A stretch of DNA of 64,000 bases, from assembly GCA_000934665.2 (NCBI GenBank), contig JYFJ02000499.1:1-64000 (forward strand), written 5' to 3'. The number at the start of each line of letters is the position of its first letter. The stretch's first letter is position 1. Shown one piece after another: positions 27,401 to 64,000 of the stretch. The notes below the pieces were generated by a model. It was not told the origin of the DNA. It ran no database searches and saw nothing but the letters and a program-made list of their open reading frames with translations. The stretch is from Catajapyx aquilonaris. Lineage: Eukaryota. A program made the position numbers and the translations under genes.

Positions 27401-27557
27401 TAGGAAAGAGAATCTTCTTTTATTCATGATTATGATGGGCGGGGCGTCGTTAAGGGAGCATTGCTGGAACGTGCGTCTTTGATGAAACTTGCATGGATGG
27501 ATTCGAGTACAGTGAATCTGGGGGATGGGGGATTGGACTCAGCGAAAAGGGAATGGG

Positions 27558-27577
27558 GAGAGAGAGAGAGAGAGAGA
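27558..27577. repeat. (GA)10 microsatellite
   Basis: Direct reading. Confidence 0.95.
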
Positions 27578-28022
27578 CGACTTTGATTACGTCCTTGCAC
27601 TACTTAATAAGGCGGAATGAAAAGAGCAAGCATCAAGGGGGCGCCCTTTGATGCTGCATGCGCCGAAATTCCATGGTTAAAAAAATATTGGGGGCGAAGT
27701 AATTGCCAGACAATTGCTTGCTTTAGAGACTTTTAGTCAAGCTCTAGTCAGCAGTAATTTAATACTGTCATAATTAAAGAAATGGTTCTTCAGTGCAGCT
27801 GTTCTGATAAGAAACGTCCGGTTGCTTGACATCGCAGAAGCGAAACATGACACATGATCATCCAGCAGTAAAATATGAGAAACTTGGCATTAGGTGTCAG
27901 ATAAATGCAACCCGAGCCCCGTGTACTTGCAACTCAATTACCAGTATTTTGCTCCTGCAACTTGGGTCCAAGGTCCGACCTGAGGATGTCGAACTGGAGG
28001 AAATCCGAGCCCGTAATTTCCG

Positions 28023-28032
28023 GTGGGGTGAT
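28023..28032 (-). promoter_or_regulatory. Perfect SRE-1 motif (ATCACCCCAC)
   Basis: GTGGGGTGAT on the + strand, identical to the classical SREBP element of the mammalian LDLR promoter. Function here is untested. Confidence 0.3.
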
Positions 28033-35295: not shown

Positions 35296-35315
35296 AGAGA
35301 GAGAGAGAGAGAGAG
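35296..35315. repeat. (AG)10 microsatellite
   Basis: Direct reading. Confidence 0.95.
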
Positions 35316-38300: not shown

Positions 38301-38804
38301 TAGTTTAGTGTCGGACGTGTTCGAAACGGAGAAAATTTTTGCACGCGTGTAAAAAGAGCGAGCTAATTTGTACAATCCCAGAATGTCTTTCCGTTTTCTG
38401 GCTTAAAGTCTGGAAAATTTTCTGGTTGTAATAAAGGCTCGAGTTCGGGTTTAATTCTGCAAAATCGCTTTGACGACGAGCCAACATTCCGGAGGCCCGC
38501 TGACAGTTACTTAATTCCAACACCTCGAATAATTTTGCGAAGCCGCCAACTGATTTCGCCAGACTGCAATTTCTGATACTGCAATCGAAGTCATTAAGAG
38601 AATTCTAGTCGTCCGGCAAACTGCAGATTCAGCAAGTTTTCAACACCCCCCCTCTTCCAGAGGCTTCGAGAAAACGCTGTAATCACTTTGTCCTTGGCAT
38701 GTTGGGGGCCGCATGTGTCGCATTGTGCATTGCGGCGTGTACTTTCCGGTGCAATTGCACTGACAATAAACATTGTTGCATGCTAACTAATTGTAACACA
38801 CTGC

Positions 38805-38900
38805 ATTATAACATCTATTGTATAATATTAAAATCTTTCGTTGTTTGGATAAGCCTTCTGATTGGTCCGCCGCATTTGTTACCGCAACACTTCCGATTGG
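38805..38900 (-). repeat. Short interspersed repeat, copy B (inverted relative to A)
   Basis: See copy A. Similarity continues to GATTTT...ATAGATGTT with an insertion in B. Confidence 0.85.
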
Positions 38901-41900
38901 CCCCCCTCACACAACACTATGAGTAAACAGTGTCCTTCTGTTGACGCTGTTTACTTATATTGTTGAGGTCATTTCCATGGAAACTTGAAAAGTTGGAGGT
39001 TCCATAGTTGCATTTTGGGAGGTCCTTTGGGACGGCAATACATTAACAATAAGTCCTCCACCACCGCAGGCCGCAGGCCTAGAAAAAAGCTAGCATATAG
39101 CGAGGGATTTTCTAGTATAAGTATAGAAAAGGAAAAATATGTTTAAATTATTTATTATAGGCTAGGTATAAAAAAACTGCAGAATTTATTTCCGTTGCTG
39201 TTTGGCTGGTGCAACATCTACGCCGATTTTTACTCCTCGTTTCTTTCGGGGTTGAAATAGTTTGCTCCAAACTCTAGCCCCGAGAGATGAAACCCAGTGA
39301 CCCTTCAAGGACGCCACATCCATTCTTACCGGTCAGCATGAGACGACAAAAAAAGACGAAAAAAAAGAGAGAAGGTTTCAGCCGAGTTTTTCTCTTTCTC
39401 TCGGACTGTGGAGAGCGATAGGAAGTTGGCGGAGAAGCTTTCCCTCCTTTTCTCAGATGGATTTGTTCATTGCGTTGGTATCAATAGACGAGGCGACTGA
39501 TAACAAATTCGATCGCGGAAAGACGATAAAAAGGAACGACGTTTGAAACCGATTACCTTGGGACTTTGCGACGAGACCAGGAAATGCTGTAACGACATTT
39601 TGTGGTGCATACCATTTGAGGGTTGAAGACCTGAAATTCACAACAGGTATTAATTTCGAGACACGAGTGTTTTAAATATATATTTTTTGCTCCCCTTTCT
39701 ACGTAAAAGAGTTTATTGCTATTGCAGGAAATTAGCACGAGAGACGAGTCAGACAACGCCAATAATTTGGACCAAAATGTGGTCCAGATCAAGGCTTTAG
39801 TTATATTTCACGTAGAATATGTACAATTTCACTGAGCACTCCAGGCTGTGTTGTGATAAATGGTTGCAATTTTGCGCTTTTGTGCAAGGAATAATGAGCC
39901 TGTGTTGAGCCGATGATTTAGTAATGGGGCAGTTCATACCCGACGGTGCATTGTATAATTTTTTTTTTCAAATCCCATCCGGTGTTGTGCATCCGCAGCA
40001 GTTTTCCCGGAATATGGTCGAGTGAAACAGGTCCCCGATGCAGTAGAGAATCGTATGGTTTTCCCATGAATAGCTGGCTCGGAATAAGCAGCTGCAGAAT
40101 CCAATCGAAGGGCTGTTGTTTTCTATCCCGACGAACGATTGGGATTTTCTCCCAGTCGAAATCGCACCCAGGCTCCACCACCACCTCTCTGAAAATGGAA
40201 AACCGCGTTGGGTGTGTTTCGCGCATTTCCAATCTCTCGCAAATGGGGAAACCACGGTCCAGCTTCGTTTTATGAGGCAGTCAAGGAATGCTCGCCCACC
40301 CAATTTTTTGTGTCGGTATATTCCGCCCTTGGTCTCTTTAACTTGTGTTCAGCACCTGCAGTTCAATATTCGAATTTAATATTGGTGTGCACAGAACTTC
40401 TCTGGAAACTTCTTCTCCGGGACGAACCACTGTATATTTGAATGCGGCTTTTGTCTCGCCCCGTGGCGTCGGAATCCCGTTTTGTGTAAGATGCAAATAA
40501 AGCAGGGTCGGATTGATGATATCTGCTGGAAGCTGTTGGTGCAGTGGTGGTCTCTGGTGGAGGATGGATGGCAAGGAGAAGCCGGTTAGCCATGACGCGG
40601 CATAATCAGCCATCATTACCCGTAGGGGCAAACCAGGGATTTATCATCTGGCCAAACAGACCGCTGCCTGAGTTCCCTGAGAGTAGTGTAGTAGGCAGGC
40701 GTGTCACGTGTCGCGCGATGATGGCGATGGGACACCGCCACTTGGCTCCTCTGATGGATGCTGCGGGACCCAATCCTGCGTATATTTCCGACTCCGCTGC
40801 TCCAGACATCCGAATTGCCAAAACCCCAGGCAGTAGTCGCTCCCTTTGACTGCCTGTTTACCTGCCGACGGAAACGTCAGAACTGTTTTTGTGCTGCGGT
40901 CACCTACAGTGTGCAAACACCTTTTGTGTGTACATTGTTTACGCTGCCCGTTACAGGTACAGCGAATTGTCCGGACCATTTTCACAGCTATGACAGGCAT
41001 TTGACTCTATGAAAAGTGCACCCCAAAAGTATACCAAACCGGTCGAGTTAAAATCGCTCATTGGTCTCCATTTCTCCTCTAATCCGAGTGTACGTATATC
41101 CACGAGTAGCCAGTACATCACTCTGAAGAGATCAACATATGACTCCGGAAACAATGGGCATTATGGCAGCAACCCCCGAAATTGTATTCAACCTGCTGGA
41201 AACACATCAAGAGCAACAAAAGGGATATGGCCCTTTCTATCTCCCCAGCTTTTGGAGAGTATAGTATAGTGGAGGGGGGCAAAACACAGGGACCTCGAGG
41301 CAATATAAATACTACCCCCTCGCCCCCCTTCTCTCCTCATCCTATACACTTTCCAATCCTCGTGTTGGGAATGGCCGCGAGCTTTAAAGATCACAATTTT
41401 CCAGCCCAGCTCCCCCAAAGTTTCTCCAATTAAGTGAAGTTCGTAGTGTTGCTTGAACGTTGCAACTCGAGAGACTGAAAAGCAGTCTGCCAATTATAAG
41501 TAAGGAGACTTGTGGAAGGGGGGGATGAGGGGAGGGGAAAGAGAGAGGGGTTACTCCAGCTCCATTATCGAGGAAAGCAAAAGAAGACGTGATTTATTCC
41601 TCTCGTCTGCTGCTGCAGGAAATTGGTAGCCCAAGGACCTTTTTTTTCCTATTTAAAAAAACCCTGCAGCATCTCATGTGATAACCTTTCACATCCTGTG
41701 ATGGCGAACTGGAGACTTTGATACCGAAGCATGTCTCTAGGGGGCACTAGATGAGCCGTGACTTCTTGGCTCGACTATCTCGAGAGGACCTCTAGCGGGA
41801 TCATAATTATTTGCATACGCTGCATAAACATGTGCAGTCTAGACTAGTCATATGTCACCTTTTGCATCTGAAATTCCGGGTTAGACCAAATCCCTGCAGG

Positions 41901-44900
41901 CAAAAAAAATTTAATCACTAGGACAGTCTCATTGCGGACGAGTGTAATCTGGTTTCCCCTGCACAATCACGTGATAATTTCGGGTCCTAAATCACGGGCT
42001 AATTGAATTGTAGAGAGACAGGGGTTCGAATCACAAAACCTTCTGTGGGGGGATGAAACTGTCTGTGCCTGTGCTGTGTGTGCAGCCTCAAAGAGCAATC
42101 CGTACTAAAACCCCATGGTAGCATCAGGGCAAGGACAAAGGCAAGGTTTTCATAGAAGCTTTAGCTTGCACTTAATGGATTACGTTGAGGTTGGCTCTCT
42201 TGGCGGTTCGCTGTTCGGATCATTATGCATGTGCTTCTGATATTCGCGCTTTGCTGCTGTTCGGAGGCACAATGGTGGAAATTTCCGGTGCCTAACCTTC
42301 TGTTGCGGTTTTAGCAATTCTAGACACATGTGGAGTAGGGGGGGAAAAAAACTTGAAGTACTAAGCACAACATCAAACAATTGCAGTCAGATCCGCCGAA
42401 AATGAGTTTGCAGTGCTCTGTGCAGCATATAAACTGGTGTCCCACAAAGGACTGGAGGGGTCATGACAGGTTTCAGGAAATGTTATTTTTCGGGGGGAGG
42501 CTGTGACCTGATGGGAAATGAAAAGGGGAAACTGGCAGGGTGAATGTTTTAAAAAATCCGGACATGCAAAAAAAAAAAAAAGAGTTTGCTTGGCCATTTC
42601 AAAAAAAAAAACATGTCGGTCGGCGCTTTTGTCGCAGTTATATTCGAGTATGAAAAGAGACCATGGTTCGAACTGTTTGAATGTAGGTTTCCAATATGTT
42701 CGGCCACCCTGTTCGCGGATTTTTTTGAACGGCATCGTGGGTGCCGTGTAATGACGAAATGGGTGGCTTGGAGCCAGGAGCGGGTAAATTTACTATCCGG
42801 TAATACTGAAGGTAATCCCTGCTGCTGCATCCAAACTTGAAGCGGGCCATAATAGCGTGTTCACTTGAGTTATCGATCCTGGCCTTTCGGTACATGTAAT
42901 CCGACTCCCATAAAACGCTATTTGCGAATGTATTTACGACCATCAGGTATAGGATTGTCCCTGCAGCCTACTACACACACACACACAAAAAGTGTCGCGG
43001 CTCAAACTTTTTATTATTATTTTCTGGAGGACGGTCCAGACGACAAAAGAAGTCCAAACAGGGTTGTGGATGACAATTGAAGAGAGAAAGAGAAGAGGAC
43101 AAAAGAGGACTGGCGGACTAATGGCCTGTGGGGAAAAAGGAGTTGGAAAGTTGGTAGTACAAGACTGGGGGCAATTTCGCCGGAATGGGGCTCTTGTTTC
43201 TGCCCAATGCCCCGCAGCCACTAGTTGAGGTCGTGTATATGGAGCCTTAAAGGAGGTCCGGACCAGTGGCCCCAAAACAAGGTGGGCGGGTTGGGGTCGT
43301 ACTTCTCATTAGTCACGGTCCAACGCAACTGGAGATCTTTGGGTATTGCGCGAATCCGGGATTGACGTGGATTGCTCTTGGGAAACGGGGGCATATTCCC
43401 GGATTTAATTTATGTGCTCGGATCACGTCCTGCTCCCAGATTGCTCCGGGACTGCCCCAGAAATAGGTTCATCCTGGATTGTATGCAACACACGGGAGAG
43501 TTAAACGGTCGGGCTATCCACCAGGGGCACTACGACTAATCCAGATAATATTTTCTCAATTCACAGTTTGAACTACTAGTATTAGCCACCCATTTGGCTT
43601 CACTGGGGAATAAGCAGGCCCTTGTGTTGCAGTGAGTTTTGATCCGGGCCTGATTATGTAAGCTTCACTGCACCATTCTCGCCTGCCTCCCCATTCTACC
43701 CGCGCTTATCATCATGCGAATTCCCTTTTCGCCCGGAATCGTTATCGAGGAAAATAAGTGCGTCATGAGGATAACGGCAGGAAGGTGCAGGAAAAGGGGT
43801 CGCAATTCCCAGCTCAAAAAAAAAGAGAATTGAGCAGCAGTCCATAAGAAAACAAGGGGAGGGAATGGCTGCATTTTGGGATCGGCCTCCTCTATTACCT
43901 CAAACTCACAGGTTTTTCCACCCTCATCCTGACGTGGGCTTAACTTAGTCCGGGACCCAGGAACTCCCTTTTCTGGTTGGCCTGGAAGTCTCCGGGCACC
44001 CGGAATTAATGGGCCATTGTCAGGCGCAAATAGCAGGAGGGAAACAGATTCAGGGAGCTAATGGAACTTTGCTGATCTCTTCCTCTCTCCCTATTCGCTT
44101 GGCGGCTGCACCTCTCTCACTCTCTACTTCTTCTTTTTTTATATATATTTTAAAGCGTCCTTCCCCATTCTCTCCAGCACTAAATTTTCTCCTCTTGCTG
44201 ATTCGAATCTTCATACCAGACTCTCCTGCCAACCCTTATCTGAGCTCGAAATTTGGCCGTAAATTCCCGATGTTTACGCCAGATGGGGGTGGCTGCAGTT
44301 TTCGTATATACCAACATGGCCGCGTCTTTTTACCTCGATTATGATTGGCTGCTGTTGAACACACATGCGCAGAAGCCACATTTGCTAATCGGGCGATTAC
44401 GAACCAGTTAAAACCTCCTGGCAATATTTAACCGGTTTGTCTCTCCGGGCTGTTGGTTAGCCCCACCAGGCCGGCTCTTAAAAAACATGAGTTGAGCGTA
44501 GAAACCTGAGTGAATCTGGTAAAGTGCATTGGAGGATCAGTGCCGTATTGGTCCCGAGGGGATCGGCTGATGTATAGTGCATGGCGCAGCTACTTATTGG
44601 GCTAGCTTGGGCCGTAATGTCACGAGGTGAGGAGATCAGAGGCAGTTTAGCCTCCGGGATAGGTAAGGAGGGGATGGATGGGATGGATGGGAAGAAGAGG
44701 AGGAGGGGAGGCTTCTCTTCCTCCCCTGCAGGAATGCACGAGTTGAGGAGCTGTCGTGTTGCGGCTCCCGAGGGAACAGGCTTTGACGCGCTCTGACTAA
44801 CTCGGCACTATGGGGCCGCGGGGAGAAGAGGGTTAGAGGGGGGGGAGGCGCCTACTAGATTATGTTCCTGGAATCTGCCGAGCAAGTTTGGTCGCAAGTC

Positions 44901-47125
44901 ATCATCGCCTCCGGAAGTCAAGTTCAGCTTCAATTTTCATTGGCAGGCTTGCCATCTGGATATTACACACTTTTCTTTAGCGGAATGCTGTGATGGCGCT
45001 ACTTCTATGGGACAAGTCGGAATTAAAATATTGTTTTGGAAATATTGTATCCATTAACAATAGGAAATCCATTGAAATTTATATCACAAGCCCAATTGAA
45101 CAATCTGTCTTCCTCTTGAATGTACTTAGATAAACCTACCATCCTGTGTTGGCACAGTACATATTCGCACCCTGGAGTGCAATTAGGGCTGCCTCGCAAA
45201 ATTCCATGGCATCCGCATAAATAGGGGCAGAAGAGACATACCAAATGAGGCCTGCAGTTTTGCGATATCACCAAGCAAGGCATCATGCCTCATCCGCATT
45301 CATATTAAGCCCTGGCTATGGCGCTGCTCTCTCTTTTTTTCCAGTAAAATGTTAATCAGGGCGAGTGCGCGCATAGCACACCAACTTTGATATCTTTTCC
45401 CAGGAAATAAGAAAAGTTGGCGGAGGTTACCGGATAGGAGGTGGAAAGAAAAAGATGCACGTGCTTTAAAAAGTCCCAGCAGTCTCTCCCCGTTCAATTA
45501 TTCAGGTGCATGGGAGCGTTTGCATGCTTATATATATCTCGCCTTCTGCAGCATGGGGAAAGGAAAAGTCCCTCGAGGACACTGTCTAGTTAAAAACTTG
45601 GGTCGTCATAAAGTCGAAATACCGTGAAATGACGAGCTGCTTCGAATTAGATTAGCGACGTGTCTTGAGAACCAGGCATCCGGAGGCTGGGTGGGTGGGT
45701 GGTTGGGGAGACGATCGTTAACCAATTAAAGTTGAGGGACCGGCGCGATGGGCTACAATTGCTTGTCCGCTTTTTTAGCCGAATATCTCCAGATGAAATC
45801 CTGGCCCGCTGCTGCAGTAGCAAGAACTTTGTATAGGGTAGTTCAGGAGTTAATTTTGCCAGCTATTTCACGACTCGTTTCCAGCACTTTTGAGTCCCGA
45901 TCCTTTTCATTGTTGTAGTGGTCGCCTGTTGGATATTTCCATGAGCACTGGGACCGTGCATGGTCTCCCCTGTAATCTTCTTGGGGTGTGTCTCTGGGCA
46001 GATGGCAATTGACCCCTCTTCTCCTGCTAGATGAGAGCAGGGGGACACTACGAGCCAATAACCTCATTTCACACTCCACAACCCCGAAACACTTGGGCCT
46101 AACGGGGTCACACAAAGCCGGGCGATTATTTCCAACCCCGCGGTGTAATTAGTTGCGTCTTCACACTTAACTGGGCACAGTGCGAGAGGATGAGGAGAGA
46201 GAGAGGCTGCTGGTTGGCGAATTTCAGCCTCAGGTGCCCACTTGGCCTGCCTTTCTCTCATGCAGCACCTAGCATTGATCACATTTGGAAGCTAGATGGT
46301 GGAAGGTTGGCAGGATATTGAATTTCACAGGAAGGCTCAAGTGCTGCTGCTGCATGGCTACAGGATCGGGCCAGAAAATCAAGTCGCACACAGACCTTCG
46401 ATATATTTCAACCTTTCAGCCACTGCAAATGGCACTGCTGCAGTCCCTCGGGGTTGGCTGTATCCACTAGAGGTTTTATGGGTTTTAAACCCACTAGACT
46501 TTCCCATATCCACCCACTGAGCCGCTGTCTTCCCCCCGAAAATAAAATAGAAAATCTCACGTAGATGCGTCATCTACGTACAAAAGCATGTCGAGTAACA
46601 TTACAATCTTCTAGTGCATATGTAGCGTAGAGGGACTGAATCCGATTCAGGGACGACTAGATGACACTCCATTCCGTACTCCCCGAGCGAATAAATAGCC
46701 CTCGTAATATAGTGCTAATCTAATAATGCAGCTTTTTCCGGCGAACCTTTTCGCGCAAAAACATTCCCTGCAGTTCGCGTGCTGATTTTTTTTTTGAAGC
46801 AGAGAGAGATGGTGGTGGATGTAGTCAGTAGTGGGAATGTGACTGACTCTCCAACGCATGTTGGCTGGATTGTCGACATACCTGCTGTCCGCCAGGAGGG
46901 GTAATATTGGTACGTTAATTGGATTTCCATTGAGTCGATTAAACCCGTAGCATGTCAGGAGTTGTGTGCGGGAGGGGGGGGGGGGAAACCCAGAGAACAG
47001 ACTGGGTTTGTCTGTTCAAGCTTTCCCACCAGATTAGCCCCAAAGTTCAGCTTGCGGACATGGCCTCGGCTCACAAGGAGGCGAATACGTCACGAGGAAG
47101 TTGCCCCAATCCTCATTCCAGGACA

Positions 47126-47205
47126 CAGGGTGTTTCAAAATGATACAGCAAACGGAATCGTTTTAGCTTCAAGGACCAAATGACATGTCATTACGAAACA
47201 GCCTG
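47126..47205. mobile_element. 80-bp Tc1/mariner-type MITE relic
   Basis: Terminal inverted repeats CAGGGTGTTTCAAAATGA and (rc) CAGGCTGTTTCGTAATGA, 15/18 match. Flanked by CA on the left and TA on the right, consistent with a mutated TA target duplication. Confidence 0.6.
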
Positions 47206-50200
47206 TATAATTATCCGGAGCGTCTTAATCCTTCAGAATGCTTCCTTGTCTAAGGCGAGACATCGGATAAAGAAAATGGGGGTGTAGTAGATGCGACCCT
47301 GGGTATTAAATTGGGTCGGAGGAAGAGAGTAGGTCCTCTGAGGAATGGACCTGTCGGGGACTCGCGTTTAGGAGGATTTTGTCCCCGTGTTTGGGAGGAC
47401 AGTTAAGCAATTGGAGCTTGCGGGGACTAATCTTTCAAGAGATGCAAGAGTTTCGGACCCGCTAATTAATCACAGGGCCACAGGCCTTAACTCTGCACAT
47501 CTGAGCCTAATTCCACCAGTCCTGAGGAAGGATGCTTGATGCCTTGAGAAGTAACCGCGATTTGTTCGTTCCGTACAAAAGGTCCATTCACATAGGACTT
47601 GCGGACATGCGGACTGGAATTGTGTAGCTTCTCCTAAATTTTTATCCTAGAATGTACTGTTGATTTACAAGTACAATGCAATTCAGCGACGTTAGTAAAT
47701 TGACTCTGTCTTTTGGGCAAAATTTGGACTCGCATTTTGTAAACAAGCTTCAGGTTCCAGGCTATGATACAGTAAGGCTGGAACTGCAGTGCAGCAAAAT
47801 TTCATTGTGAGTCAGTTCCATGTTGACGAGCAGAACTGGTACAGTGTCTGAGTAAGTATTCTTCTCTAAGGTGCCTCAAGTGCCTCTCTAGACAGACACT
47901 GACACCAAATTACGGCTCTTGTATAAAAAACAAACATGGAACTTTCCCCGTAACTCCCGTCCCGACATAATGATGCGGTTCCTTCGGATTATACGAGTGG
48001 CTCCATGGTATATATAGATCCATCTCGCTCGTTACTCAGAAGCTCTCGCGAATAAGAATGGCTTTGGCTCAGTCTCACCAACTTTGATTTTCCCCCGGTT
48101 GTGTGAATAAGGCGACGAGTGTCTACAGTGAGAGTGTGACACTGCTGCAGTTATTGTCACGGGAAGTTCCCTTTCCTAAAGAGGTAGACATGGTGCTTGG
48201 CGTTGTCATGCAGAGTAGAGCCCCTAAGCTGAGCCGTGAAGGACGGGGCAATTAGACCGAATTCCGAAGGGACGGTGCGGACCTGCCACCTTGGAAGGGG
48301 CCCCTTCTCTCCGCTGATTAGTTCGTCCCGATGTGCGCCCAACTCTTGGCCCTAATGACATTAAGCAGCGTCACGATCTAATGCAGCGGCAGAAGCAGCC
48401 GGAGCGAGTCCAAGCCCTGGAGAAATGTCTCCGGACATTTTTTTTTTTAAACTCGAGGGTTAGAGCTCCAAAAAAAGGCTGCTGCTACTGAGCGTCAATA
48501 TCAATTGAGACAGGAATGGAATTCAATTATGGACTGGAAATGTAAGTGTAAGTTTGTGTTACATTGGTGACCATATAAGTAAAATAACATTTTGAAGTCA
48601 CGTCCTTCATTGCCAAAAGCTCCTATTTAAAAAAAATCACCACCCAAAAGGCAGCCTTATGGCGACTTAGTGGAATACCCCGTCCTAGGCCATTACAGGC
48701 TCAAGTTGGCCTAAATTACTGCTGCAAAAGAGGTGTACTCTCCTTTTTTTGTTACACGGTTCTCTCCTATAAAAGAGAGAAAAAAAGCGGCGCTCTTTTC
48801 TTTTGTGGTCCCCAAAGATAGATGAGAGGCATTAGGAGACGGTCTAGAGCTTTAGACTTTGGGTACGGGAAAAATTTGGAAGTGAAGTTCGTAGCCAGCA
48901 GACTGATAAATTAGCTCCTTTTTTATCGTGCTAAAAAAACCCTCCCTTGGAAGACAATTCCCTGCATTTATAAAGCATTTCCCTCCCTCCTTTTATTTCT
49001 GCAGAAGAGGAGGGGGGGGGGGGCAAATTTACTTTCTTCACATGCACGGGAATTTTGTAATCTTGGTTTCCGTAGCAATGAAATGTTCCGGTCTTGATTT
49101 AGTACGACGTATCGCCTTGAATCGTCACTGTATTATGTATATATATTTTTTGCGCACTGGCAATTCGCACATCCTTCGGCCTCCCTAGGCTGTTCATTTA
49201 CTCTCGAGACACTTAATTATCGAGCCGGAGCGTGTGTAAACGCAGCAAGAAAATGTACAATTAGGGACTGTAACCGGGCGCAAAACGGACTTAAAGTTGC
49301 GCCGTGTGTCCCATATAGAGTTGCATTTTGTCCCGGTGATTTTGTCGCGCCAGAGTGGGTGTGAGTTTGGAGTAGAGGAGAGAGAGTGGAGGAGGGGAGA
49401 TTTTGCGAAAACGCTGCCTGGACCATGTGTAAAATGCATCTGGCTGGAAAACTGCGGAGGCAGAAAACTGGGGATAGGGCATAATGCCGGCTATAACTGC
49501 CGGTGAGTGTAATTTGTTGACGTTTTTAGTCCACGGAGAAGGAAATGGCCGCGAAATCCGGCGCTGAATCGCGTAAAAGGGACACCAGAGAGAAAATAGG
49601 ATGACCGTCCGAAGAAGCATGGACGGAGAGCACCCCGGATCGTAAAAAAAATTATACGATGCTTTTACCGCGTTATTAAGGTGAATATTGTACATAAACA
49701 CCGGGATTGTATATCTGAGAAAATGTCGGATTGTCTCCGCATTGTTGCATGTCCATAGGAAATTTATGGCCGCCCTGAAAAAAACAATGGAAAATACTGT
49801 ATTAGGCCGTGAATTTTCGATCATAAATTGTGGACACAAATATGAAGTGTCAGCACGTAGACAAAAATTAAATTTAAAAATGAATCATCATTGTCTGTTT
49901 CTAACAAACCTATTAACAAATATATCCATGAATATTGGGGGAAGAGTCGCTTGCTATTTATTTTAAAGCACAATTCCTCATTGAACTATATACTGTTATA
50001 CGAGGCGTTTGGGGATTTAAATTTGCGGTTGAATAAATTCCCAGATTTCCTGTGTGTAGGTAGTGGGCATTCTCTGATCACATGGCCGGTTGCGCATTCC
50101 TGCAAGTCCGGGGCCAATTTCTGGGCTCCTACATAACCGGGGGTAAAAAAAAGAGCTGGAAAAAAATCCGGGTTGGGTGCAGAGAGAGCTAGAGAGAGAG

Positions 50201-53200
50201 AGAGAGTCGACCCGATTTTTGCGTCTCTCGTGACATGACGAACAGCCCCCGACGCAGATTACGGTAATTGCCAGAGCACACGCCACAGTTTTTGACGAAT
50301 TCTACTCTCCCCTTGATTTTAATCAGGCTGGCAAATGCAAAAATTGCGGGCTTATAACTTGACCAACTGTTCCTTTTTTTGAAAAAAAAACTCACTCTGC
50401 TGGCCCTGCGTTATATATAGGAATATCGCTAAAGCAATTTGGACCACATCTGTATCCTCTCCTCTTTTTTTTCCGGTCTTTCTACGGGCGTGTATCGAGT
50501 AAAAAAGATCCGGAGCATCGGTCTGGAAATTGCGAATCGGGGTCCAGCTTCCTCGGAATTGCTTATGGAAATGACCCGGAACCACAGCTTATTTATGGGT
50601 AAGCCGGCCCCCCCGGTCTTTGCACTTTTCATATACCCGCGAACACTATATGTCGACTTAACTCGGAGACTTACATGAGCATCGTCGTAACTTTGGGTCC
50701 CTCGGATTTGAACTGGGCTATCTCGTTGTAATTCGGCATCATCGTAACTTGCGGCCCATCCTCTTTTACTGCCTGAATATTGCTCTGCCAGGTTGCAATC
50801 AATTTTTTTGGTGGGGAAGCCATGTTTAGAAATTCAGGGGGAACTACCTATATTCTGTTAAAAACATGGCCACATTGTCGTTTTCCAGTAGTAAATTTGC
50901 AGCATCCTAATCTGGGACAGACGCCATCATCCCAATTGGAGCGCGTTGCGTCGCATTGTCTATTCTCCCACCTTTTCGCCCACCGACTTTTAATCTAATG
51001 CGATTTTACGCCCGCCTAATTTTTGCCCTCTCTCCTGTTGGCTAATGCCGTCACCTGAAATTGCGAATGACTTTTTTTTATATTCCAACTGCTGTATGAT
51101 GCGGGCTTGCACACGTCACAGTCGCCTAATGAAAACGTCGGCTCTGTTGTGGCAACCAGCTGGATACATTCTGACAAAAAAAGTCTCGATGTAAGAACCC
51201 GTGAAATGTGTCCTGAAACTGGAAGTTTCAAACATTTTTTTTAAAAAGCTTAGTGCTCCGTGACGGTTGGCATGAAAGTGGTAGTATGGTAAAATGACCA
51301 CCAATCCTCTGCTGCACCCCTCAAAACGGCCTAAACCACCGAGGCGGTCAAATGCCTTCTTATCTTTGGGAGGAGGGGGGGGGGGGTTGAATCTGGCTTC
51401 AGCACAGCCAGCCCCTGAGGAGAAAGACTTGTGCAGAGTTTCGCCAGGGCGCAGGGATTTGGAAAAGGTTTCGAGCCTTCTATCGGTCCCAGTACGACCC
51501 TCAACGCCTAACGCAGATTCACGGTCTTATAGGGCCCTGGGAAAAACGGCTTCCGGGGGCCACGGGATTCCGGATCATTCGAACCCATTTTAGAGGGTAA
51601 GGGTTATAAGCAGCCACGTTAAACTTGTGCTGTTCAGGTCCCCAAACATAATTATATAGGGAAACTTGCGCTATTGCGTTCAGAATTTAATGAGATTGAA
51701 AAAATAATGCACGTGGTCCACCTGCGGGCCATTCGTAAAGGAGCTGGGGCTCGCCTTTTCGCCGAAACTCGACGATAACTTATATTCAGCTAGAAAAAAA
51801 TTCGCCGAAAATCTACAAAAAGAATAAATTTGACAGCTTAATCCCTGGGTAAATTAACACTTTTCACTAACTGAAATTTTGAGAATTGGCTGCCAGATTC
51901 GATCCAATCACACTCAACGTCGCTATACACTGTATCCTCGGCGTAACTCTTCCTCCTGTCATATAACCACCCCTGATAAGAAGCCATATTCGTTGGAATG
52001 AACAAGGCTTCGGTCCGGATATCTTTTCCGGGTAGGGTCCAAGGGGGGGCTCCTGATCCGGGGCCAAATATCATCATCCTTCATTGGTGCTGTCCGTATC
52101 CCTGGCAGATAGTCGGCGTTCCGGAGATGCCACTCGGCGCTGGGGCAGGACACTTTTCCTGGAAGGGGAAATGGGAGGGAATCGATCCCGGTTTGCTTCA
52201 GAAGGAATGGCGCCTGCCGAAAATTGGGCAAGTGAAGGGCGGCCTTGTCCTTTGTTGTCGTCGTGTGTGTGTGTGTGTCTGTATATACGACGAGTGACGT
52301 GGACAGGCTGCCAGAGACATGCATCTGAGGAGAGGGGAGTTGGGGGGGAGGGTCTCAGCTGGGCAGACCCTTTATCACAAACTTCTTTATCCGGGATGTC
52401 ACTTCTTACATCCAGAACTGGGATGACAACGCCCGGGTTGAAAGAAGAAAGGAAAAATACGGGGAAGGGGGAAAAAAAAAGAAGGGGTGGCGGATATCAG
52501 TCATAAAGGAACTGGGAGGGGTTATGGGCAGGAAATTATGGAAATATTGGAGGAAAATTTACTTTTCGAGGAACGGTAACGAATTCCTACCCGGGATGAA
52601 ATATTGCGTTATATTTTTAGGAAACTCCTTTTTTGGGTTAAAGTGAATGAGCGAGGGAGAGGTTTTTCTGTCTCTCGCTGTGCTTGAACATGTTCGTGCT
52701 AATTTTGCCAGAAAGCGAGGATGATTTTTCATTGTTATAAATTGGGGAATTTTCCGGAAAGAAAACATGCACTACATAATAATAAAATGGAAACGTCCCT
52801 AATAAAATATTGCAATAGTTAGTGTATAAATATGCCAGATTATCTCTTGGAGTTCATGCTTATGCAATATCAACGGAAATGTCCATTTGCATAAAGGTGG
52901 ATTGTTGGAGCTGTTTATTAACTATATAATATTATTTCAAATGTAAAACTATAGCCTGTTCAAATACAAAAATTGTGTCAATGCATAATATACAACATAC
53001 CCAAGTGTGTCATTTATTTTTGTAATATATTGTATGATATATGAACGTGTTCGGCAAGACTTTGTCACATTTTTTGGCATTTGCACAGTTTTTCTACCTA
53101 AGGCAAACATGCAATTTACAGTTTTATGATTTGACTGATGCATATGTAAAACATTGTTATTTTTGCTCTACGCAAATATTTACACAACAGCAACGAATTC

Positions 53201-56200
53201 CAAAAATGAAAGATTGTGCTACATTTTATGCTATTCTTTTTTTTCTGACAATGAACAAGGCGAGCCTTTTCCCCCTCGGCCCTGCGTGCTATGCTTGAAA
53301 TACGCACACAATTCTGCTTCACTAGAGTGAAAACGTGCTGTAAACAAAAGGTTTCAAAGCATATAAAATTACCTGCAATAGGTTCAAATGTACCGTACCG
53401 TACAACAAAGCATGTCTACGTGTAGGCCTACAAAACGACATGACTATATTTTATGTCGCTTTTCGACCTGTACCCATCAATCAGCTTGGAAAGCCTTTCC
53501 AAACTATATCCACAACACATCCACAAGGTCTCTGAAAGTATTGGAAAAACTGAGGCCAGCGTGATGACGTGCGCCCTTAAGTTAGGCCACCTGGCGCACA
53601 AGAGAGTCGCAAGGGTTGCGTTCAAATGTCAGGATAAAGAAAACGTCCACTTTGTACAGGGTGAATAACAGTGGCCATAATGAATACAGATGTGTTAACT
53701 TTGCCCCCGCCCGTTTAAAGGGCTAATTTGGGCTCGACGGGTAAGCACCGTATATCGCCTGGCAGTAGTTAAAACGCCAGGGTTCGACGATAGAGAAATG
53801 GAGGTTTGCGAAAACCTAACTTCCTCGCAAGTGGATATGGGGAGCGGATATTGGCAGTTCGGGACCGTAAAAACTTGGGGCCTGGGCCCGTAAGTCACTA
53901 GTTGGGCCCCCCCCGTCTTTTCCCCCAAAAGCCGTTCCATCAACTTGTGAACTTTGAAGATAGTTGGTTATAAGTTTCAGTACGGTTGCGGACTGAGTTA
54001 GCACCTTTTAACCCGAGAGGAAATAGACCCGGAGGCTTGTCCGGGGCCCTTCGGAACACTCTATTCCGGTGGGAGAGAGGGCTCAACATTTCATTCCCAA
54101 ACTCTGGGTCCCGGATATTTTATTGCCACAATTCCTAACTGTTGGAGAACTGTGCTATACAGGATGACACCCACACCAAAGAAAAAGTTGTGGCGGCATT
54201 ACTTGTCGACGGATTGACCGAGTTACAATCAACAACTAAACAATATTGCAAGTTTCTGCCAAAGTTAACTCAATTCGCATGAAAAACCCTAAATGCGGCC
54301 GTATCCTGAGCGGATTTAGCCAATCAAGTTTCGCAAATTGAGCTATTGTACACCGGGAGTGTGGCAAGTTTTGTACAGTTAGGGTTTTGAGAGTTCCTTA
54401 ACCGCTACTCATCAGTTGGAGAGAGGGAAGCTGAGGGGAGGTGGGATTGGTCTGAAGACATTTTCCAGTCGAGAAATCTGAAGAGCCCAGGTGGGATGAG
54501 GTGGTATTTGAGGCCGGAGAAACTCAGTCCCGACCATCTCCGGATTAATTAAGGGTGGTACTTGCACAATGTAGGCTGTAAATCCGGACACACACACTCT
54601 CTCTCTCTTTCCGATTAGAACCGCGGAGTTCTGATGGAATTCATTATCGTTGGCTTGAATGTGCTTCACTGGAAGGGGCACAAGAAGGTTCCGTAGTTTT
54701 GAGGTCACGCCTCCGGATAAAACCATCTGAAAGGGTCGGGGGGGGGGGTCCTAATGCAAAGATTTGGTTCTAGGGTGAGTTCGATTTTACTAATTGCCTT
54801 TCGCTTTAGTAAGCATAGCAGCGTTCGAAGCCCCCTTTGAAAAGAGAGCTAATAACTTTTGATTGATTGGATGGCTTGGGAAGGAAGGAAAAGAGAGCGA
54901 GAGAGAGGTTTTCCGGTGGGACCCAAAATGCGGAACTGACTTGGGGATTGGATCTGGCCATTAGGCTAATTCCGCATCTCTTGTCCACCGGCAGCGATAA
55001 TTTGCTTATCGGATGTGGGGTTGCGGTATAATATAATAATAAAATGCCAGTCGCTTTGAGAGAGGCGGAGTATTGTGAGTTGCAGGCCAGAGTTTTTGAG
55101 ATGCCCCCCCCCCCCAACTCTCTACCCGCAGTTTCAACCCCCCCTCCTCTTGACTTCTTGCATACGTAAGGAGACGCGATATTGGGAGGGGAACACCGGC
55201 TGCTGCTGGAGTAATACCCAGCTCTGCAAAGAATCCATATGCACGAGGCTGCCATGATATTAAAAGTCTTGGTTCAAAACCCCGCCCAACCCTCGTATAT
55301 TAACCCTTTAGGTGGAACCCGCCTGCCTTGCTCCATCGTATATATCAGTATTTGCACACTACAGGGCGGTTTAACCGCTGCTGATGGAGGCTCCGATCCA
55401 CAGGGTGGATTGTCTCATTGAATTGCCAGAATTACCAAAATTGGTAGACTTCGAATTTCTTTAATGGTGTCTGCCTGTTGGCAGACAAAGCATACTTTCC
55501 TGTAGAGAAACAGTTCAGCTATACATAGCTTTTTTAATAAAACAGTAACGTCATGTACAGCACACAAGCGTATATGAGAGTCGAATTTGCGCATACAGTT
55601 CTTGCATAATTATCAGCATACTTACGAACCACCATGAATAGATGGAACTCTCTCGCCCTTGTTTTATTTATAGAGGAAAATAATAGCAGCGATATGAAAA
55701 TGAGAAGCAACTTCTAGATACTTCACGTAGCTCCATTAAGGTCATCAAAACAACCTTGTGATCCTCAGCCAATAATAACAGAGTCGAAATAAACATAGAA
55801 CTGACCTACCACATTTTTAGTGTCGTTGCCACTCTTGTGTCCACACTTTTGGCTCAACTTGCCAGTCGATTCTTCCTCATCGCTGGACATTTTGGCGATT
55901 AAACTCAACTTTTATTCAATCCGATGCCTCTCCCTGCACCAAGTCTTATCGTCTCTCCCCCCAGTTAGGCTGGCTTGTAACAAAGGGTATGATGATAAGA
56001 AATCTTTTTGTTTCCGGGCCTCCCCCCTCTAAATACTAGGAAAGGGGTAGGAAGAGAGTGGTTTATTATCAGGAAAGGGGGGATGTCGGAGGGACGGACA
56101 GGGCTTTGAGGACAATGGCGTGGATTTTACAGCTCTCCGGATGCTGCTAGAGGGGGGGGGGAGGGTTTCTGCTCTTTAATCTGGTAAAAGGATACGTGGA

Positions 56201-57490
56201 GGTATTAACTTAGGTGCAAATGGGCGCCTGGGAATTCGAGTCCTCCGCCTTTTGTGGCCGCCTTTAAAGCCCTCTTTGCGGACGACAATGCTGCTATACT
56301 AATGCTGCAAGTACAGGGCGGCGCACAGCTCAGGTGCACTGTTCAATAGGAGAAAATGTGAATTGTTAATCTCCAGATCGGCCAACAATCACCGAACTGC
56401 TTTTTCAAATAATTAATGATGATTATGTTCAACTCGTTGAAGGTACACAGTCTACAACTTGTCCTACTCTGGTACAGTGTTGACTAGAGCAGTGCACCAC
56501 CCTGTTTACACCAGGGAGGATGGCGCAAATTGACCATGTGCACCAAGTACCGGTTTTTGGCAATTATGCTGCTCCGAAACGCATTTTCTCAATGATGAAT
56601 TTTGGCGATTGCGGCGCATTAATTCGCTCGGAATGGGGCCGTTAAAGGGTATTAAACCGGCCACAAACGGCTGTAAATGTTTTTCTTTGGTTATCCAGAT
56701 TTGGGCGCTAAACAACACTTTGTGGCCATACCTTCCAAAAAAAAATGTGTGCATACAGGGTGAATCCCAGACTGTATAAACTCTAATGAGTAAAAGTACT
56801 ACTTTATTGCGACACACCTTGTATGGCAGTGTTCTTGAGTTAATGCGGATGAGGTGTGGAGCGTTAATTCGTCATTCCGGAGCTTGAGTGCAGGGCGGCC
56901 GCATCAGCCGAACAATCCCCGTAAAATCCTAATTAGCATTGTTAATAGTAGAAATATCGTCAGATAATCGGCAGGCAGTGGCAGGCATGAAGAGAGTGCA
57001 TGGATTTTACATCCTATACAGTGATCACTCTCATCTTTATTTAAGGAACCAAATTGGCCAGATTTGGAATGTTTCGCATTTTTTTTGCACACAAAAACAA
57101 ATCTGCCAATTTTAGGGATTCGTGTATACTTCCGCTTATTGATCCCTTGGAATTCTCTGGCTTGGCTTCTACCCCTTCCCCGCGAAACTTGGCCAACATT
57201 GGTCTAGACTTGGCGTTGCTTATGCGGAGGCGGCGGAAATCAAACAAGCCGACGCGATAATTCGCGATATTCCGGGGGGAATCCGGAGCCCACAAGTAGC
57301 ACCGGGCACAGGGAAAGGGGGAACTGCTGCTTGGGAAAAGCTGGAGATGGGAAAGTTTGCAGATTCAATCTGAGGAAAGGGAAGGGAGCTTTTCCTGCAT
57401 CAGTTTAAACCTTCAGTTAGTGCAGTTATTGGCTGCTAATATTGCGATTGAAATTGTTTACCTTGTATGCAAAGTAGGTCATGTCACGGG

Positions 57491-57526
57491 TTTTTTTTCA
57501 CTTCTTTTTCTTCTTTGCAGGTAAGC
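57491..57526 (+). other. Candidate recursive splice site (ratchet point), junction 57520/57521
   Basis: ttttttttcacttctttttcttctttgCAG|GTAAGC: 26-nt almost pure pyrimidine tract, with the acceptor abutting a strong donor. The downstream phase-1 frame reaches TAG after 17 codons and is not LDLa-like. Confidence 0.7.
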
Positions 57527-60500
57527 CGCTTCATCTGTTCCTGTCAGCAAAAAGGGTCGTGCTTCTGGTGTAGCAACAATAACCACCTGTGGGGTAGACC
57601 TCGGAGCAGGTATTTTCGCATGAATCTGCGGCGGCGAAGGCTGCAGCAATTTTTGCAGGAAAAACGTCAGACGCAGGGATTGGCATTATATACACTTTTT
57701 TTTGCGAAACTGTGGGTTTGCTACTGGTTGGATAGAAAAGCCTGTATTTTTTTTGCGAGACGCGTGTCCGGGACAAAAAAATAAGCGAGAAGTGTATAAG
57801 GTTTTTTTTTTTCTTCTGTGAGCTGTCAGCACTCTTCACCACACGCTGCTCTTTGAGCGGGTTCGATCGGCTTGACTTTTCTCTAGAGATTTTGTTGGTT
57901 TGAGGGGGAGGGGGAGATGCTGCAGACAGGTCTCGTTTTGCGACTCATACTGACGTGGATTATGTGCCCTTTTTCCTATCGAAGTGACACACTTCAAGCT
58001 GCTGTATATACGATATATATTTTTTATACGTCCAGGTTATAGATATCGAGCATAAAATGGCAGGCCTGAGGGCGGAAGCCACAATCTTGGCGACTATAGG
58101 CTTTTATGTTAGACAAACTCTAATCTCGTAACAGTATAGCTCCTGGCAAACTAATAGCTCAAGTAATGGCACGAAGAATCTGTGATGTACTTGTAGGAGC
58201 CAGAACATACAGGTTGCCAAGTCCTTCACACCCAGACTGTAACGGGCGCATAAACTTGGGCCCCCTTTTTTGGCCACGATGCTTGGGATGGCCGAGATTA
58301 GGTGGCCATTTTAACATGGTGGAAAATAACTCGTTTGATGTGTGCTTCGTCTGTTAAGGACATGATCGTTAAAGGGGTGGGCGCCAGAAAAAGAGTGCGG
58401 ATGATAGGTGGTGCGGCACAATTTCCTTTTGATGACGGGTGCCAACCACTCTGGAGATGTTTGCATTAGAGTTGGAAGCAAACTGAAGGCTTCCTCCTTT
58501 AGTGGGTTTGGTCCAGATGCATTTTGGCCACTGGCTATATGGTCTGAGGGGAGGCTGGGACGAGTTTACATGGCAAACTTTCCACCCCTCTTTTATTGAT
58601 TTCATTGCAGATCTGGCTCTCTCTCTCTGTGCCCCCCCATGTATATATATACCCTCACATATAGGACGCATATTTTCACATCAGATAACACGCACATCGC
58701 ATAAACGTAGCACTTGTGGCCACTTTACCTCGTGTTATCTCCCGCTCTGAATTGGCGGGGTTGCCAGTTCGTTCTGTATGCTGATGCTTGGTTAGCAGCC
58801 CCAGTAATTATTAGCCACGTGTTTATGAAGTGTTTACCGCAATAACACCCCTGACGTCACCTTATGCCAGATTTGGAGCATACTGGTGGTAAAACATGTT
58901 TGCCAGATAAATTAATACCAGCCGGTGTTTCATCTCAACTGACAACATTTAAGAGCAAGTTTCATCAAAATTCATATCAGATCATTGTATAGGATTATTA
59001 TTTATATGCTAAATAATCTCGAAAAATGCAGTTTTTTTCCCCTCACCCGCGGTGTAGCCGTCAACTTGGATATTAGTAGTTAATATTCTTGCTTCATCTC
59101 CCAAGAGTAATTGCTCCGAAAGTATTAAGCAGCTTAGTGGCAATGTTTCTCCAACTACTTTGGGGCGCAGTGCATTGTAATAAATCATCCCACCGGCAAA
59201 CTGGTTTCACCACCTATTTTGCTCCAGCGGACACCATTGATTGCTCTTGCATTTCACGCGCGTTTTAGTTGGGAAAGGGGGAGATAGGATGAGAGGGGGG
59301 GGGGGGACATGTTTTAACAAAATATTTAATAACCCGGGGTGATGAAAAGGTCGGCACGTGACGACTTGACTTCCTCGTCACGTCTCTCCAGTTTTCATCC
59401 GTCCCCTTTTCCCCACCCTTGTCAGGTCAGAACTTTTTGTTTGACACCCTGGGTTTTTGGAAGGGGCCGTTGGTTGGATTGGGGGGAGGCTGGATATATG
59501 CCGAGGATATATCGTCGTGGACCAGGGGTAGATGGGGGGAGGTTGAACCGCGTTGAGGCCAATATTGGAAGGGGTCAAAAAGCTGAGGCATGGGCGCGGT
59601 TCTTGCTTTTCTGGCAGCGTAGTAACGCAGGGGATCAATAACTGCGTGAAAACGGATGCTGCTGCTGGAGCCGAGAGAGAAAGAGGAGGCTTCATGCCCC
59701 CCCGGAACATCAAGAAGCACGCTCTTTCGCCTGCCGCCAGTACAGAAAAAAAAGGCTCCAGTGCACTTGGACGCCGATGAATCGCGCCTTGTGGTCACAA
59801 TTGGAAGAGAGAGGGAGTGGAAAAAAGCACCTTTTGAGCCGCGTGACGTCACACCCCCTACCCCATGTCACGGTCTGTCACGTTGACTTAAACACCCCCA
59901 ATTCCACCGTGTTCTTTGATATATACGAATCATGTTTGGGAGTAAACATGAGCATGTGCTAGTACTGCACTGTATATGCCGCGGGCTTAGAACTGCGCTG
60001 AAACTAATTGCCCTTGCTGGTACTACACCTCTGCCAGCGAGAGGGCTTGACCCGAGTGAGAAAACAAACGCGCCCGGTTCGAACAGACTATGTAGCAATT
60101 CATAATAAATGCGTTAACTCACCAACCCGGGCAGATAGAGTGGGAAAATAATTATATTACACGTGAACAAACCGGCTCTCCAAAAAATAGCGATTTTTTT
60201 GGGGGTAATAATAATTTAATCATTTTCCAGTCCACGTCATTGCAGTATTTCCAATAATGTATATCAATATAGTTACTGATATCAGTATCAGTTGTGCACA
60301 GGCTGTTTGAATGACCATGTGACATTATTGTTAATCAGTGATGACAGAGGTTAATTTCTCAACATTGGTGTGAGGTGTCTGGGTCAAATTTTTTCTCTCT
60401 CTTTCATGTGTGCAGTCTCAGTCATGATTGTTTATTACGACGTCATGTAATACCCAAAAGCGTTACGTCTTGACATTATGTAGTATGAACATGGCCTGAC

Positions 60501-63500
60501 CAGTGGACTTTTTACCTATAGTAAAAAAAGGGGGGCGAGAGAGCAAAGTGCGCAGGTTTTAGCTTGGCGTATACACAAACCGCAACCGAAAGAGAATTCG
60601 GGAGAAAATCTCCACTTGATGGATTTCGCCAGAATGTAAATGAAGTTCCCTAACTAGAATTCAAACTTTTCTGATGGACTTCTGGATATTTGACTTGCAC
60701 AAAGTTCGGCAGTAGTTTGCATGCAAATTGAATACGCACCAAAGGTGTATAGTCCAAATGCAAAGTATTTCTTCCCGTATTTTTTTTTCTGTTTCCACCT
60801 CTCCACCTATAGCAACTTAATTATGGACGTGTGTACGGACCACCACTACAAACGACCTCTTAATTTGCTCCACATCCACTGTCCGGATTTATAGGCCTGA
60901 AATAGATAGAGTACACCGAGAGCTGTGTATGAAAGGAGCTAGAAATCTTGGCCAATGAACCCTCACTCCTCTGCTGCAGTGTTTCGAATTCGTATCACGC
61001 CAGCCTTTTTGGGACACGTGCTCTAGCGGGTGCCAGCTGTACACGACCAGAACTGATTGCACCGACTGCTGTTTGAGCCCAGGGAGAGAGAGAAAAAAAA
61101 GCCTTAAGGGAGTGTGTCTCAAAGTCCGGAGTGTGTAGGAATTAATTGCTGAACTTGAGGATCCGACTGTTATTTGTATTATTGTGGGGCGTTTCAGCTG
61201 TAATTAAGCCTGACCTCTTAGGTGGTAATTGCTTATCGGCAGGTGCTAATTAGTGTTAGCAGATATGCTAATTTCAAGCCATCAGTACATTTCTGTCTGT
61301 ATATAGGCTTGTCTGCTGTGTCTGGGAAAAGGAACCTGATCGAATTAGGTCGTGAAACAGAGGCTTAGCTGGCAGCCGGTGATGCCCTTTCCCAAATCGA
61401 ATCCGGAGTCTCCATCATCGGGGCTTGTAGTTTGATTAGGCCCGGAGCTGCATCCGCGGATGAGGGCTTAGGTATTGGAGGCTTCTTCACCCAAGGTCGC
61501 ACCTAAGTGCAGTTCGGGATCCGGCCAGAATTTCTGCCCACCCGGAGATCCGGGTCAGGGAGAAAAGAGATGGAAACATTACCCAGGGGCCCCCCACGAA
61601 AGGAATCCGAGCTCTCCCCTGAAATTGTTCCCCAAGATGGCCCCCACTGTCCGAGAGAGAAGCTCTAATCCAACCGGATCCGGAATTGAAGGGAGCCCGG
61701 AAAATGGCCATTTTCGGCCCTTGACCGGGTATAATGGGCGCGCTTGTTTTCTGATGCAACGTTTGCCATCATTCAGGCGTCGGGTTGAATGGCATCGGCC
61801 CTCCCTTAATCGCACTAGCCAAGAAGTGCGGCACAAAATGTCTCCATCAGCATAAAAGTAGTTGGAGCAACGCGGAGCTCCGGGATAGCTTCACTCAACA
61901 CTCTGCTCCTTTTTTGGGGGGTGGTCCTTCCGATAAGCGCCTGCTCTAAAGATGGAAGTTTGGTCGTTGCGCAGCACGGAACAGCATTTCGCACGAGGAG
62001 GGCTAACGCCAAGTTGGAGACATCAAATCGTATGGTTTTTGTGTGGGCGAAGGGAAAAAAGAGAAAAGAAAAAAAGGCATGTTCGGTGCTTGACGAGATG
62101 CACATTACATGGAATGTGCACTACCAGCCAAATAAAAAATATTACTGCAGCAGTTGCGAGTGTGTAAATCGCATCTGCAAGTCCAAATAATAATTGCAAT
62201 GAAAGTGATGGCCTTTTGAAGCTGTTTATGTCTATTACAGTAGGCTATCAGTGACTTGCTTGTTGACTCAAAAAGTTTAATTCCGCATACCCACCAATTT
62301 TGTGCTGGACTTGTGCCCTTGGTATACATGTTGGTTCAAGCAGTTATTAACCCGAACTGATGGAAAGTGAAAGGTGCAAGGTTATTCCAACCTTCGCATG
62401 ACAGTTTCAAACTCGGAATTTCATCATTCTAGTGACAGGTTTATAATGTCGACCACCCTAATTTAACTAATTCGTCGGTTCAGCGCGCAGCGCTAGTTAA
62501 ATTAGATTTGGACTTGATTATGTATCCTTTGATATAATTAATAATGCAAAATTAGTAATGATGTGCCTTTAATAACAATAATAATCAAAATAATAATAAC
62601 GGATTAGCTATCAATATGCAATGATGATCATTATGTAATTTTTGGCGGGTGGAATATGATACCCCTACATGCTATTGAATCTCCTCAGTTAAGTCAAAAT
62701 CAATTGGTACAATAATGTGGATTTTCCCTAATATCTTTTAGAGGATTTCAGACACATTGGTACCGTATACCTGAGGACATGTCGAGCATACTTACTCCAA
62801 ACCACTTGCTAACGCTGCAACGCTCATGTAAATTGCAACCAAAGTCCTTCACTTCTAATGCAATCCCCATTCGTCCCCGTTTAATTTTCGAGCAATTAGG
62901 GCTTTAAAAAATAAGTGGGGGGAAATAAGCGGAAGGCCCTTTAAAAAAAATAGCAGCACCTGTTTCCAAATGTTTTTCCAGGCTGCGTTTAATATCCATG
63001 AAAGGGGGCGGAATCAAGCCCAGCAGCCCAGAATATTCAGTTGACAGTGATCATTAAGTGGAGGGAGGGGGGGGGGGGGNGGGCTCTGTTGTTTTTTGGG
63101 AGTGTGGGCGCAGCCGTCTTTTATTAGACTCCTACCCATGCACCTCACCCTATACTTTTCCATCTCCTCTGGGAATATATAGGAGCCCACTTTCCACTCC
63201 GGGAAACTCGTCAGCTGAACCGAAAAGCGCGCCTGTTTCATATTTAAATAGCTCGCGAAGGAAAACGAGTGTGAAAAATGAGGCATTAGCCGGACTGCGC
63301 ACAGTATAATCCCTTTTCTCATCTGGTGAGTCGTGGCGCGGGAAAAGAAAAATGTGTGTGTATATAAAAGAGAAGAACTCTCGTCTCCAGCAAGTGGAGC
63401 ATTTGCTCAAGCGATTTTCTGATGAGGATCAACTATTTATCCGCCAGCAAGATCTGGCCATTTAGGCTCCCACCTGCTCCTAAGAGAGGCTGCATGGAGA

Positions 63501-64000
63501 TAAATTAATAGAATTAATAGTTTTTTTTCCCTTAATTTGTGTTCATTTAATATGCGTTTTGTACAGTACGAGCCCAAATTGCTCAATTATGAATATTATG
63601 ATTGTAAAAAAAATCAGGAATTCTCTCTTACTTTCTGTGCATTTAGCGTTAAATAGATAATAGTGCATTTATTGCATCGTGAAAAGAGGCAACATTGCCC
63701 GAAGGAACACCCTGTACTTGGACCTGATCTGAACTATAAACTGCGGCTGAAATCAATCACCAGATTGTTATCAAGCTATTTTAGGCTTAGGTACGTAGCT
63801 TATGTGTACTCAGTTTCATGGAGATAAACACCCATAAATCATCTGCACTAGCCAGCAGTAGGCGCAATCTCAATTTTTCGGTAATTCCTTGATGTATACG
63901 TTGCTCGTAAATAACGCTGCACCCAATTACTGCTGCTGGCGCACATGATGGCATAACCTTTTTTTAGAAACATTACCGACACTCCCGGTAATTTAACTTC

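Follow-up and report, generated by a model that had tools for sequence, protein, structure and literature searches.

Does the fused acceptor and donor sequence at positions 57520/57521 of a Catajapyx aquilonaris contig act as a ratchet point, at which a very long intron is removed in steps? Recursive splicing is an established mechanism in Drosophila, and a sequence-only reading of the first 64,000 nucleotides of contig JYFJ02000499.1 (the window; positions past its end are prefixed C194) (126,849 nt in all) had called the site a strong ratchet point deep in a giant lipoprotein-receptor intron. Our analysis describes it as a probable but atypical ratchet point, and not as a strong one.

The gene that carries the site is the lipophorin receptor (LpR/VLDLR) of a non-dipteran arthropod, encoded on the + strand and running past the end of the window. 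Its LDL-receptor class A exon LA1 (5657..5779, +; 123 nt, phase 1/1; Pfam PF00057, E 4.9e-13) aligns to LA1 of the homologues, and the LA1 donor AAG|GTAAAG at 5779 opens the giant intron. The next LDLa exon (LA2) begins at C194 86434, and the intron therefore spans 5780–86433, or 80,654 nt, with 5780..64000 (+) inside the window. Further LA, EGF, YWTD and NPVY-tail exons occupy C194 86434 to 107 kb on the same strand as LA1. Lipophorin receptors of cockroach and termite match the tail exon at 77% identity, and proteins of spider and millipede at ~70%; the best identities for the body of the protein, 61–64% to cockroach, termite and katydid proteins, are rough values from tblastn pieces. When used as a homologue query the beta-propeller exon was swamped by LRP4/LRP6, and it was the tail exon that retrieved the LpR relatives. 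Upstream of LA1, a scan of 1–5656 returned only one candidate signal-peptide exon, predicted for the long (8-LA) isoform at 300..375 (+; 25 codons, hydrophobic, phase-1 donor GTAAGT), and it is this prediction that makes the earlier label "exon 2" for LA1 right in coding terms. An acceptor-like tract ending at 273 precedes this exon (273–375, +), and a non-coding exon may therefore sit upstream of it, off the contig. Inside the intron, tblastn of 67 homologues gave zero matches below E 0.1; Pfam matched none of the 91 other window ORFs tested (92 were tested of 961, the remaining one being LA1), and the window has no Rfam match. Further along the gene, a Ser/Thr-rich region for O-linked sugars is followed by apparent small optional exons (L006:240–700 and 1480–1680; C194 104.2–105.7 kb). 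Downstream of LpR lies a second gene with SNF2-helicase-like motifs (L007, C194 about 115,200–122,100, +), which we take to resemble RAD54L2/ARIP4.

At the site itself, a polypyrimidine tract with an acceptor-like TTTGCAG end occupies 57491..57520 (+). Pyrimidines fill 25 of the 26 positions in 57491–57516, followed by a G and by CAG at 57518–57520, and the nearest upstream AG is 43 nt off. The donor GTAAGC, the candidate ratchet-point donor, follows directly at 57521..57526 (+) and would be restored once the AG had served as acceptor; the junction lies 51,741 nt from the LA1 donor. A putative 89-nt cryptic exon (57521..57615, +, with its donor) would end at CAG|GTATTT, 57609/57610. Read from the phase-1 LA1 donor, this segment meets a TAG at 57571–57573, and since its length is not a multiple of three it would shift the frame. 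On all of this the sequence-only reading was accurate: its coordinates are correct throughout, from the near-pure 26-nt tract with CAG and GTAAG, through the distance of about 51.7 kb from the exon-2 donor, to the cryptic exon with an in-frame stop and the giant lipoprotein-receptor intron on the gene strand. It had also allowed that the gene might end before this point, or that 57521 might start an ordinary exon. The same-strand LpR exons that continue from C194 86434 rule out the former, and an ordinary coding exon starting at 57521 is excluded by the in-frame stop, the frameshift and the lack of any homologue match there.

Other properties of the site are less typical. The regenerated donor at 57521 scores 6.9 in its genomic context versus 2.6 for the weak +89 donor, a value that 11% of background 75-nt windows reach and that equals the median of the genome-wide class described below, all on an approximate donor weight matrix that is not specific to the C. 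aquilonaris genome. No N-T-[AG]-A-Y branch motif was found at -40..-18 and no GTRAG donor at +25..+75. Possible non-consensus branch points, GTCAC (A at 57486, -35) and TTCAC (A at 57500, -21), lie at 57483..57501 (+); both positions fall within the fly branch-point range, given as -36 to -21 in the accessible part of 10.1101/006163, which also gives ratchet segments of 2.6–63.6 kb. The motif differs from the class consensus. A TCAC of this kind occurs in 4 of the 48 class members, and the genuine LA1 acceptor likewise has no consensus branch motif. Predicted RNA structure over 57470–57630 gave no signal (z 0.08), and no informative repeats were present at 55500–59500. A weaker fused acceptor and donor, CAG|GTCAGA at 59425 (+; pyrimidines 18/20), lies 1.9 kb downstream of the site.

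The site is the sole exact match to Y14-N-CAG|GTRAG on either strand of the window. Over the whole intron this strict pattern occurs once on the sense strand and never on the antisense strand, against 0.003 expected per intron-length strand, and an order-5 Markov model (300 simulations) puts the expected chance count of such sites on the intron sense strand at 0.001–0.003. When at least 13/16 pyrimidines are allowed before CAG|GTRAG, two sense sites (19753 and 57520) and no antisense sites are found, against 0.033 expected; a still looser scan gave 2 sense versus 3 weaker antisense matches. The added site is a second candidate ratchet point (19728..19805, +), with CAG|GTAAGG at 19753/19754 behind 13/16 pyrimidines, TTAAT as its branch motif (A at -23) and AAG|GTACAG as a weak downstream donor at +46. 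Were both sites used, the intron would be divided into segments of 13,974, 37,767 and 28,913 nt.

A search of the whole genome places the site in a larger class. Y14-N-CAG|GTAAG occurs 26 times and the corresponding |GTGAG pattern 23 times, while the reversed patterns occur 5 and 5 times and the other 62 GT-NNN classes have a mean of 8.5 sites (524 of 573 overall). The background is ~5–9 sites per GT-NNN class, and ~5–9 of the 26 GTAAG sites are expected to belong to it. We compared 48 of the 49 loci, 57520 included and L052 omitted as a tandem copy of L051, with the first 30 of 430 control loci. The branch motif N-T-[AG]-A-Y is present at -40..-18 in 36/48 class sites versus 9/30 controls (Fisher p 1.4e-4), and a GTRAG donor lies 25–75 nt downstream in 18/48 versus 1/30 (Fisher p 4e-4; class versus local background, p 7e-10). 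The branch motif accompanies every one of these 18 downstream donors. The TTTGCAG ending is found at 13 of the 36 branch-bearing sites and 3 of the 30 controls. Additionally, pairs of class sites on one contig are co-stranded in 6/6 cases among the 100 matches listed of 117 (tandem repeat C1156 left out), and control pairs in 7/14 among the 100 listed of 430, as counted by eye. The contigs with site pairs are nearly devoid of recognisable coding sequence: a Pfam scan of 149 of their 3,329 ORFs, covering all of C708 and C769 and 40 of the 69 kb of C1040, gave one real match (AhpC-TSA). Judged by these motifs, the genome holds a class of ratchet-point-like sites with the Drosophila layout.

Within this class, as far as sequence features tell, 57520 is a weaker example than most. 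It is among the 12/48 sites with neither a branch motif nor a downstream donor, several of which look like background, and this, together with the missing consensus branch point and the weak +89 donor, does not sustain the earlier description of the ratchet point as strong. One class member (L046; C913 20808–20830, -) is an ordinary coding exon starting with GTGAG, whose reading resembles the Shaker potassium-channel T1 domain. Two further features were seen among the loci. A 39-nt tandem repeat at L051/L052 (C1156 7484–7782, +) carries PPT-CAG|GTGAG in each unit and accounts for 8 listed matches. The AhpC-TSA match is a peroxiredoxin-like frame (E 3e-23; L071:757–1197, C769 about 50.8 kb, +) on the strand opposite to that contig's ratchet-like sites; it may be a nested gene or a retrocopy.

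The reading that we favour, and hold to be somewhat likelier true than false, is that 57520/57521 is an intronic ratchet point in the long-isoform lipophorin receptor pre-mRNA, a dual use of the site (considered below) included. The LA1 donor at 5779 would be spliced to the AG at 57520, either directly or via the 19753 candidate. This joining would set the exon-end AAG before GTAAGC and so recreate a strong donor, which would outcompete the weak +89 donor and splice on to the LA2 exon at C194 86434. Removal of the 80.7-kb intron would proceed in three segments (14.0, 37.8 and 28.9 kb), none of them retained in the mRNA; the +89 donor, if used instead, would introduce a stop and a frameshift. 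Every one of these splicing steps is something that we infer from the DNA. We favour this reading because the site has the sense orientation within a giant intron, the chance count is low, and the class shows both an excess and features of its own, and also because of the TTTGCAG end, the co-oriented partner at 19753, segments within the fly range and the presence elsewhere of a better first-exon candidate. It is weakened by the missing branch motif and GTRAG donor and by a +89 donor that is weak and lies beyond ~50 nt. Further weight is taken from it by background sites and one ordinary coding exon in the class, by the weaker antisense matches of the looser scan, and by the fact that 57520, alone of the 48, has upstream TCAGTY plus a phase-1 ATG frame. 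The earlier claim that this intron is recursively spliced stands in so far as the sense strand, the long intron, the lack of a coding exon and the genome-wide class agree with it; it had overlooked the 19753 candidate and the possibility of a first exon. The likelihoods given here and below reflect a rough weighing of counts, with no formal model behind them.

That possibility, which we consider unlikely, makes 57520 the donor of an alternative first exon, transcribed from an internal promoter and giving a 7-LA short isoform. Transcription would start at a TCAGTT doublet (57400..57418, +; copies at 57400 and 57413), which we take to resemble the arthropod initiator. From the ATG at 57481, a 13-codon frame, MSRVFFHFFFFFA (57481..57520, +), runs through the pyrimidine tract to the phase-1 donor, and its 13-residue Phe-rich leader would be joined in frame to LA2. 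The "pyrimidine tract" would then be a run of hydrophobic codons, and both the missing branch point and the weak downstream donor would be accounted for. The phase-1 end of the frame is the phase of the LA2 exon, CAG|GTAAG is also a plain optimal donor, and an N-terminus of their own is joined straight to LA2 in 18 of 67 full-length homologues, 16 of them named insects. TCAGTY occurs twice upstream at 1/48 class sites, namely 57520, and at 0/30 controls, and only 57520 among the 48 combines upstream TCAGTY with the phase-1 frame. The intron contains two TCAGTT-type doublets in the sense orientation and none in the antisense; 37448–37476 (+) holds the sole other TCAGTY doublet within 25 nt. Precedent comes from Drosophila, where a proximal promoter skips LA1 (PMC9454125), and from the separate signal peptides of the short and long receptor forms (PMC4486166), as stated in the accessible parts of both papers. 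Like the short first exons of insect LpR genes described there (Drosophila LpR1/LpR2), the proposed exon lies in the LA1–LA2 intron and would join LA2 with its own putative leader, but the leaders of the homologues exceed it in length and are not poly-Phe. The 13-residue leader would place LA2 at residue 14–15, versus 21–129 in 17 of the 18 short homologues; the remaining one has LA2 at 17 and a leader that is not signal-peptide-like, as judged by hydropathy only. Moreover, a phase-1 ATG frame of 10–40 codons is found at 8/48 class sites but also at 10/30 controls, such frames being common because any pyrimidine tract reads as F/L/S. Finally, a first-exon scan of the intron returned 6 candidate donors on the sense strand and 0 on the antisense strand, and the best fit is not 57520 but C194 65472–65583, 8 kb downstream, which matches the leader lengths of the homologues. 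This likely 7-LA first exon (C194 65430–65589, L002:1430–1589, +) lies just past the window and ends in the phase-1 donor G|GTATGT; its hydrophobic leader would comprise 37 codons from the ATG at 65472 or 26 from the one at 65505, and TCAGT lies 42 nt upstream. A weaker first-exon candidate at 44581–44662 (+) has a 27-codon hydrophobic frame, the phase-1 donor TAG|GTAAGG and another phase-1 donor at 44626. We rejected it as a ratchet point, with pyrimidines at just 9/20 positions before its AG.

Three other accounts of the site were weighed. A T/C run, common in the genome, may have come to lie beside CAGGTAAG by chance, the site being used never or only noisily. Both class features are missing at 57520, as the branch motif is in 70% of controls and the downstream donor in 97%, each GT-NNN class carries its ~5–9 background sites, and the site had been selected by its appearance; we nonetheless think chance improbable, given the expectation of 0.001–0.003 for the intron sense strand, the correct strand, the TTTGCAG end and the co-oriented 19753 partner. 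Alternatively, the 89-nt segment could be an expressed cassette (poison) exon with its acceptor at 57520, and its inclusion would route the long-isoform mRNA into nonsense-mediated decay. The acceptor-like sequence, the +89 donor, the stop codon and the frameshift would all suit such an exon, and expressed RS-exons are known in flies (PMC8605326, accessible part). The same part of that paper indicates that the stronger donor usually prevails in flies, and with the regenerated donor at 6.9 against 2.6 for the +89 donor we regard a poison exon as very unlikely. The last account combines two uses: the site would be a ratchet point for transcripts from the distal promoter and a first-exon donor for transcripts from the internal (TCAGTT) promoter, and the pyrimidine tract would also encode the hydrophobic core of a minimal signal peptide. 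We give this combination only a slight chance. Zhang et al. are said to have described dual-specificity splice sites in mammals in 2007, and 57520, as a YAG|GT candidate for acceptor use in some transcripts and donor use in others, would be like them. If the dual use were true, one sequence would serve as both splicing signal and protein code, and stepwise intron removal would be coupled to a switch between LA1-bearing (lipid-uptake) and LA1-less isoforms.

Seen as a ratchet point, our preferred reading, 57520 shares several properties with the Drosophila ratchet points that have RS-exons (Ubx, kuz, luna and Bx; 10.1101/006163 and PMC8605326, accessible parts): a fused, sense-oriented YAG|GTRAG far inside a very long intron, segments in the size range, a ratchet donor that exceeds the downstream one in strength, and a cryptic exon that is out of frame and contains a stop. 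Unlike those sites, it has no consensus branch motif, its putative exon is 89 nt long, compared with the ~50 nt that the accessible part of PMC8605326 gives for fly cryptic RS-exons, the donor of this exon is weak, and the site is known from sequence alone; its host, moreover, is a non-dipteran arthropod. Beyond Drosophila, Table 2 of PMC2773006, in its accessible form, lists predicted RP-sites in introns of >50 kb in mosquito, bee, beetle and sea urchin, with ratios of >>10, 4.0, 8.0 and 8.2. The C. aquilonaris evidence resembles this in kind, being a motif excess in the sense direction of a large intron outside Drosophila, and the genome-wide class adds branch points and downstream cryptic donors to motif evidence of the PMC2773006 type. 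The earlier remark that recursive splicing is poorly documented in other invertebrates accordingly needs to be divided. It agrees with our literature search as regards experiments, since within the papers in reach, which left out most subscription papers, we found no experimental study of recursive splicing in other arthropods; it does not hold for computation, where the motif enrichment in the four animals of PMC2773006 has been published. Within the same reach, lipophorin receptor and recursive splicing were not found together. The supplements of PMC6110457 contained neither the names LpR1/LpR2 nor the FlyBase ids used for them; ush, the positive control, was found, and the id used for Ubx was not. 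That list is thus incomplete, and the absence of LpR1/LpR2 from it therefore says little.

If 57520 is used, the lipophorin receptor gene of a non-dipteran arthropod would join the recursively spliced genes. The stronger result is the genome-wide one: far from Drosophila, the AG|GT class is accompanied by branch points and by cryptic donors 25–75 nt downstream, and this suggests an ancient origin of the cryptic-exon mechanism among arthropods. The class also amounts to a testable list of sites. A metagenome search returned 25 loci at 42–81% protein identity, with neither a close relative nor an orthologous intron among them, and one of these loci (L083) resembles the mRNA of the long isoform.
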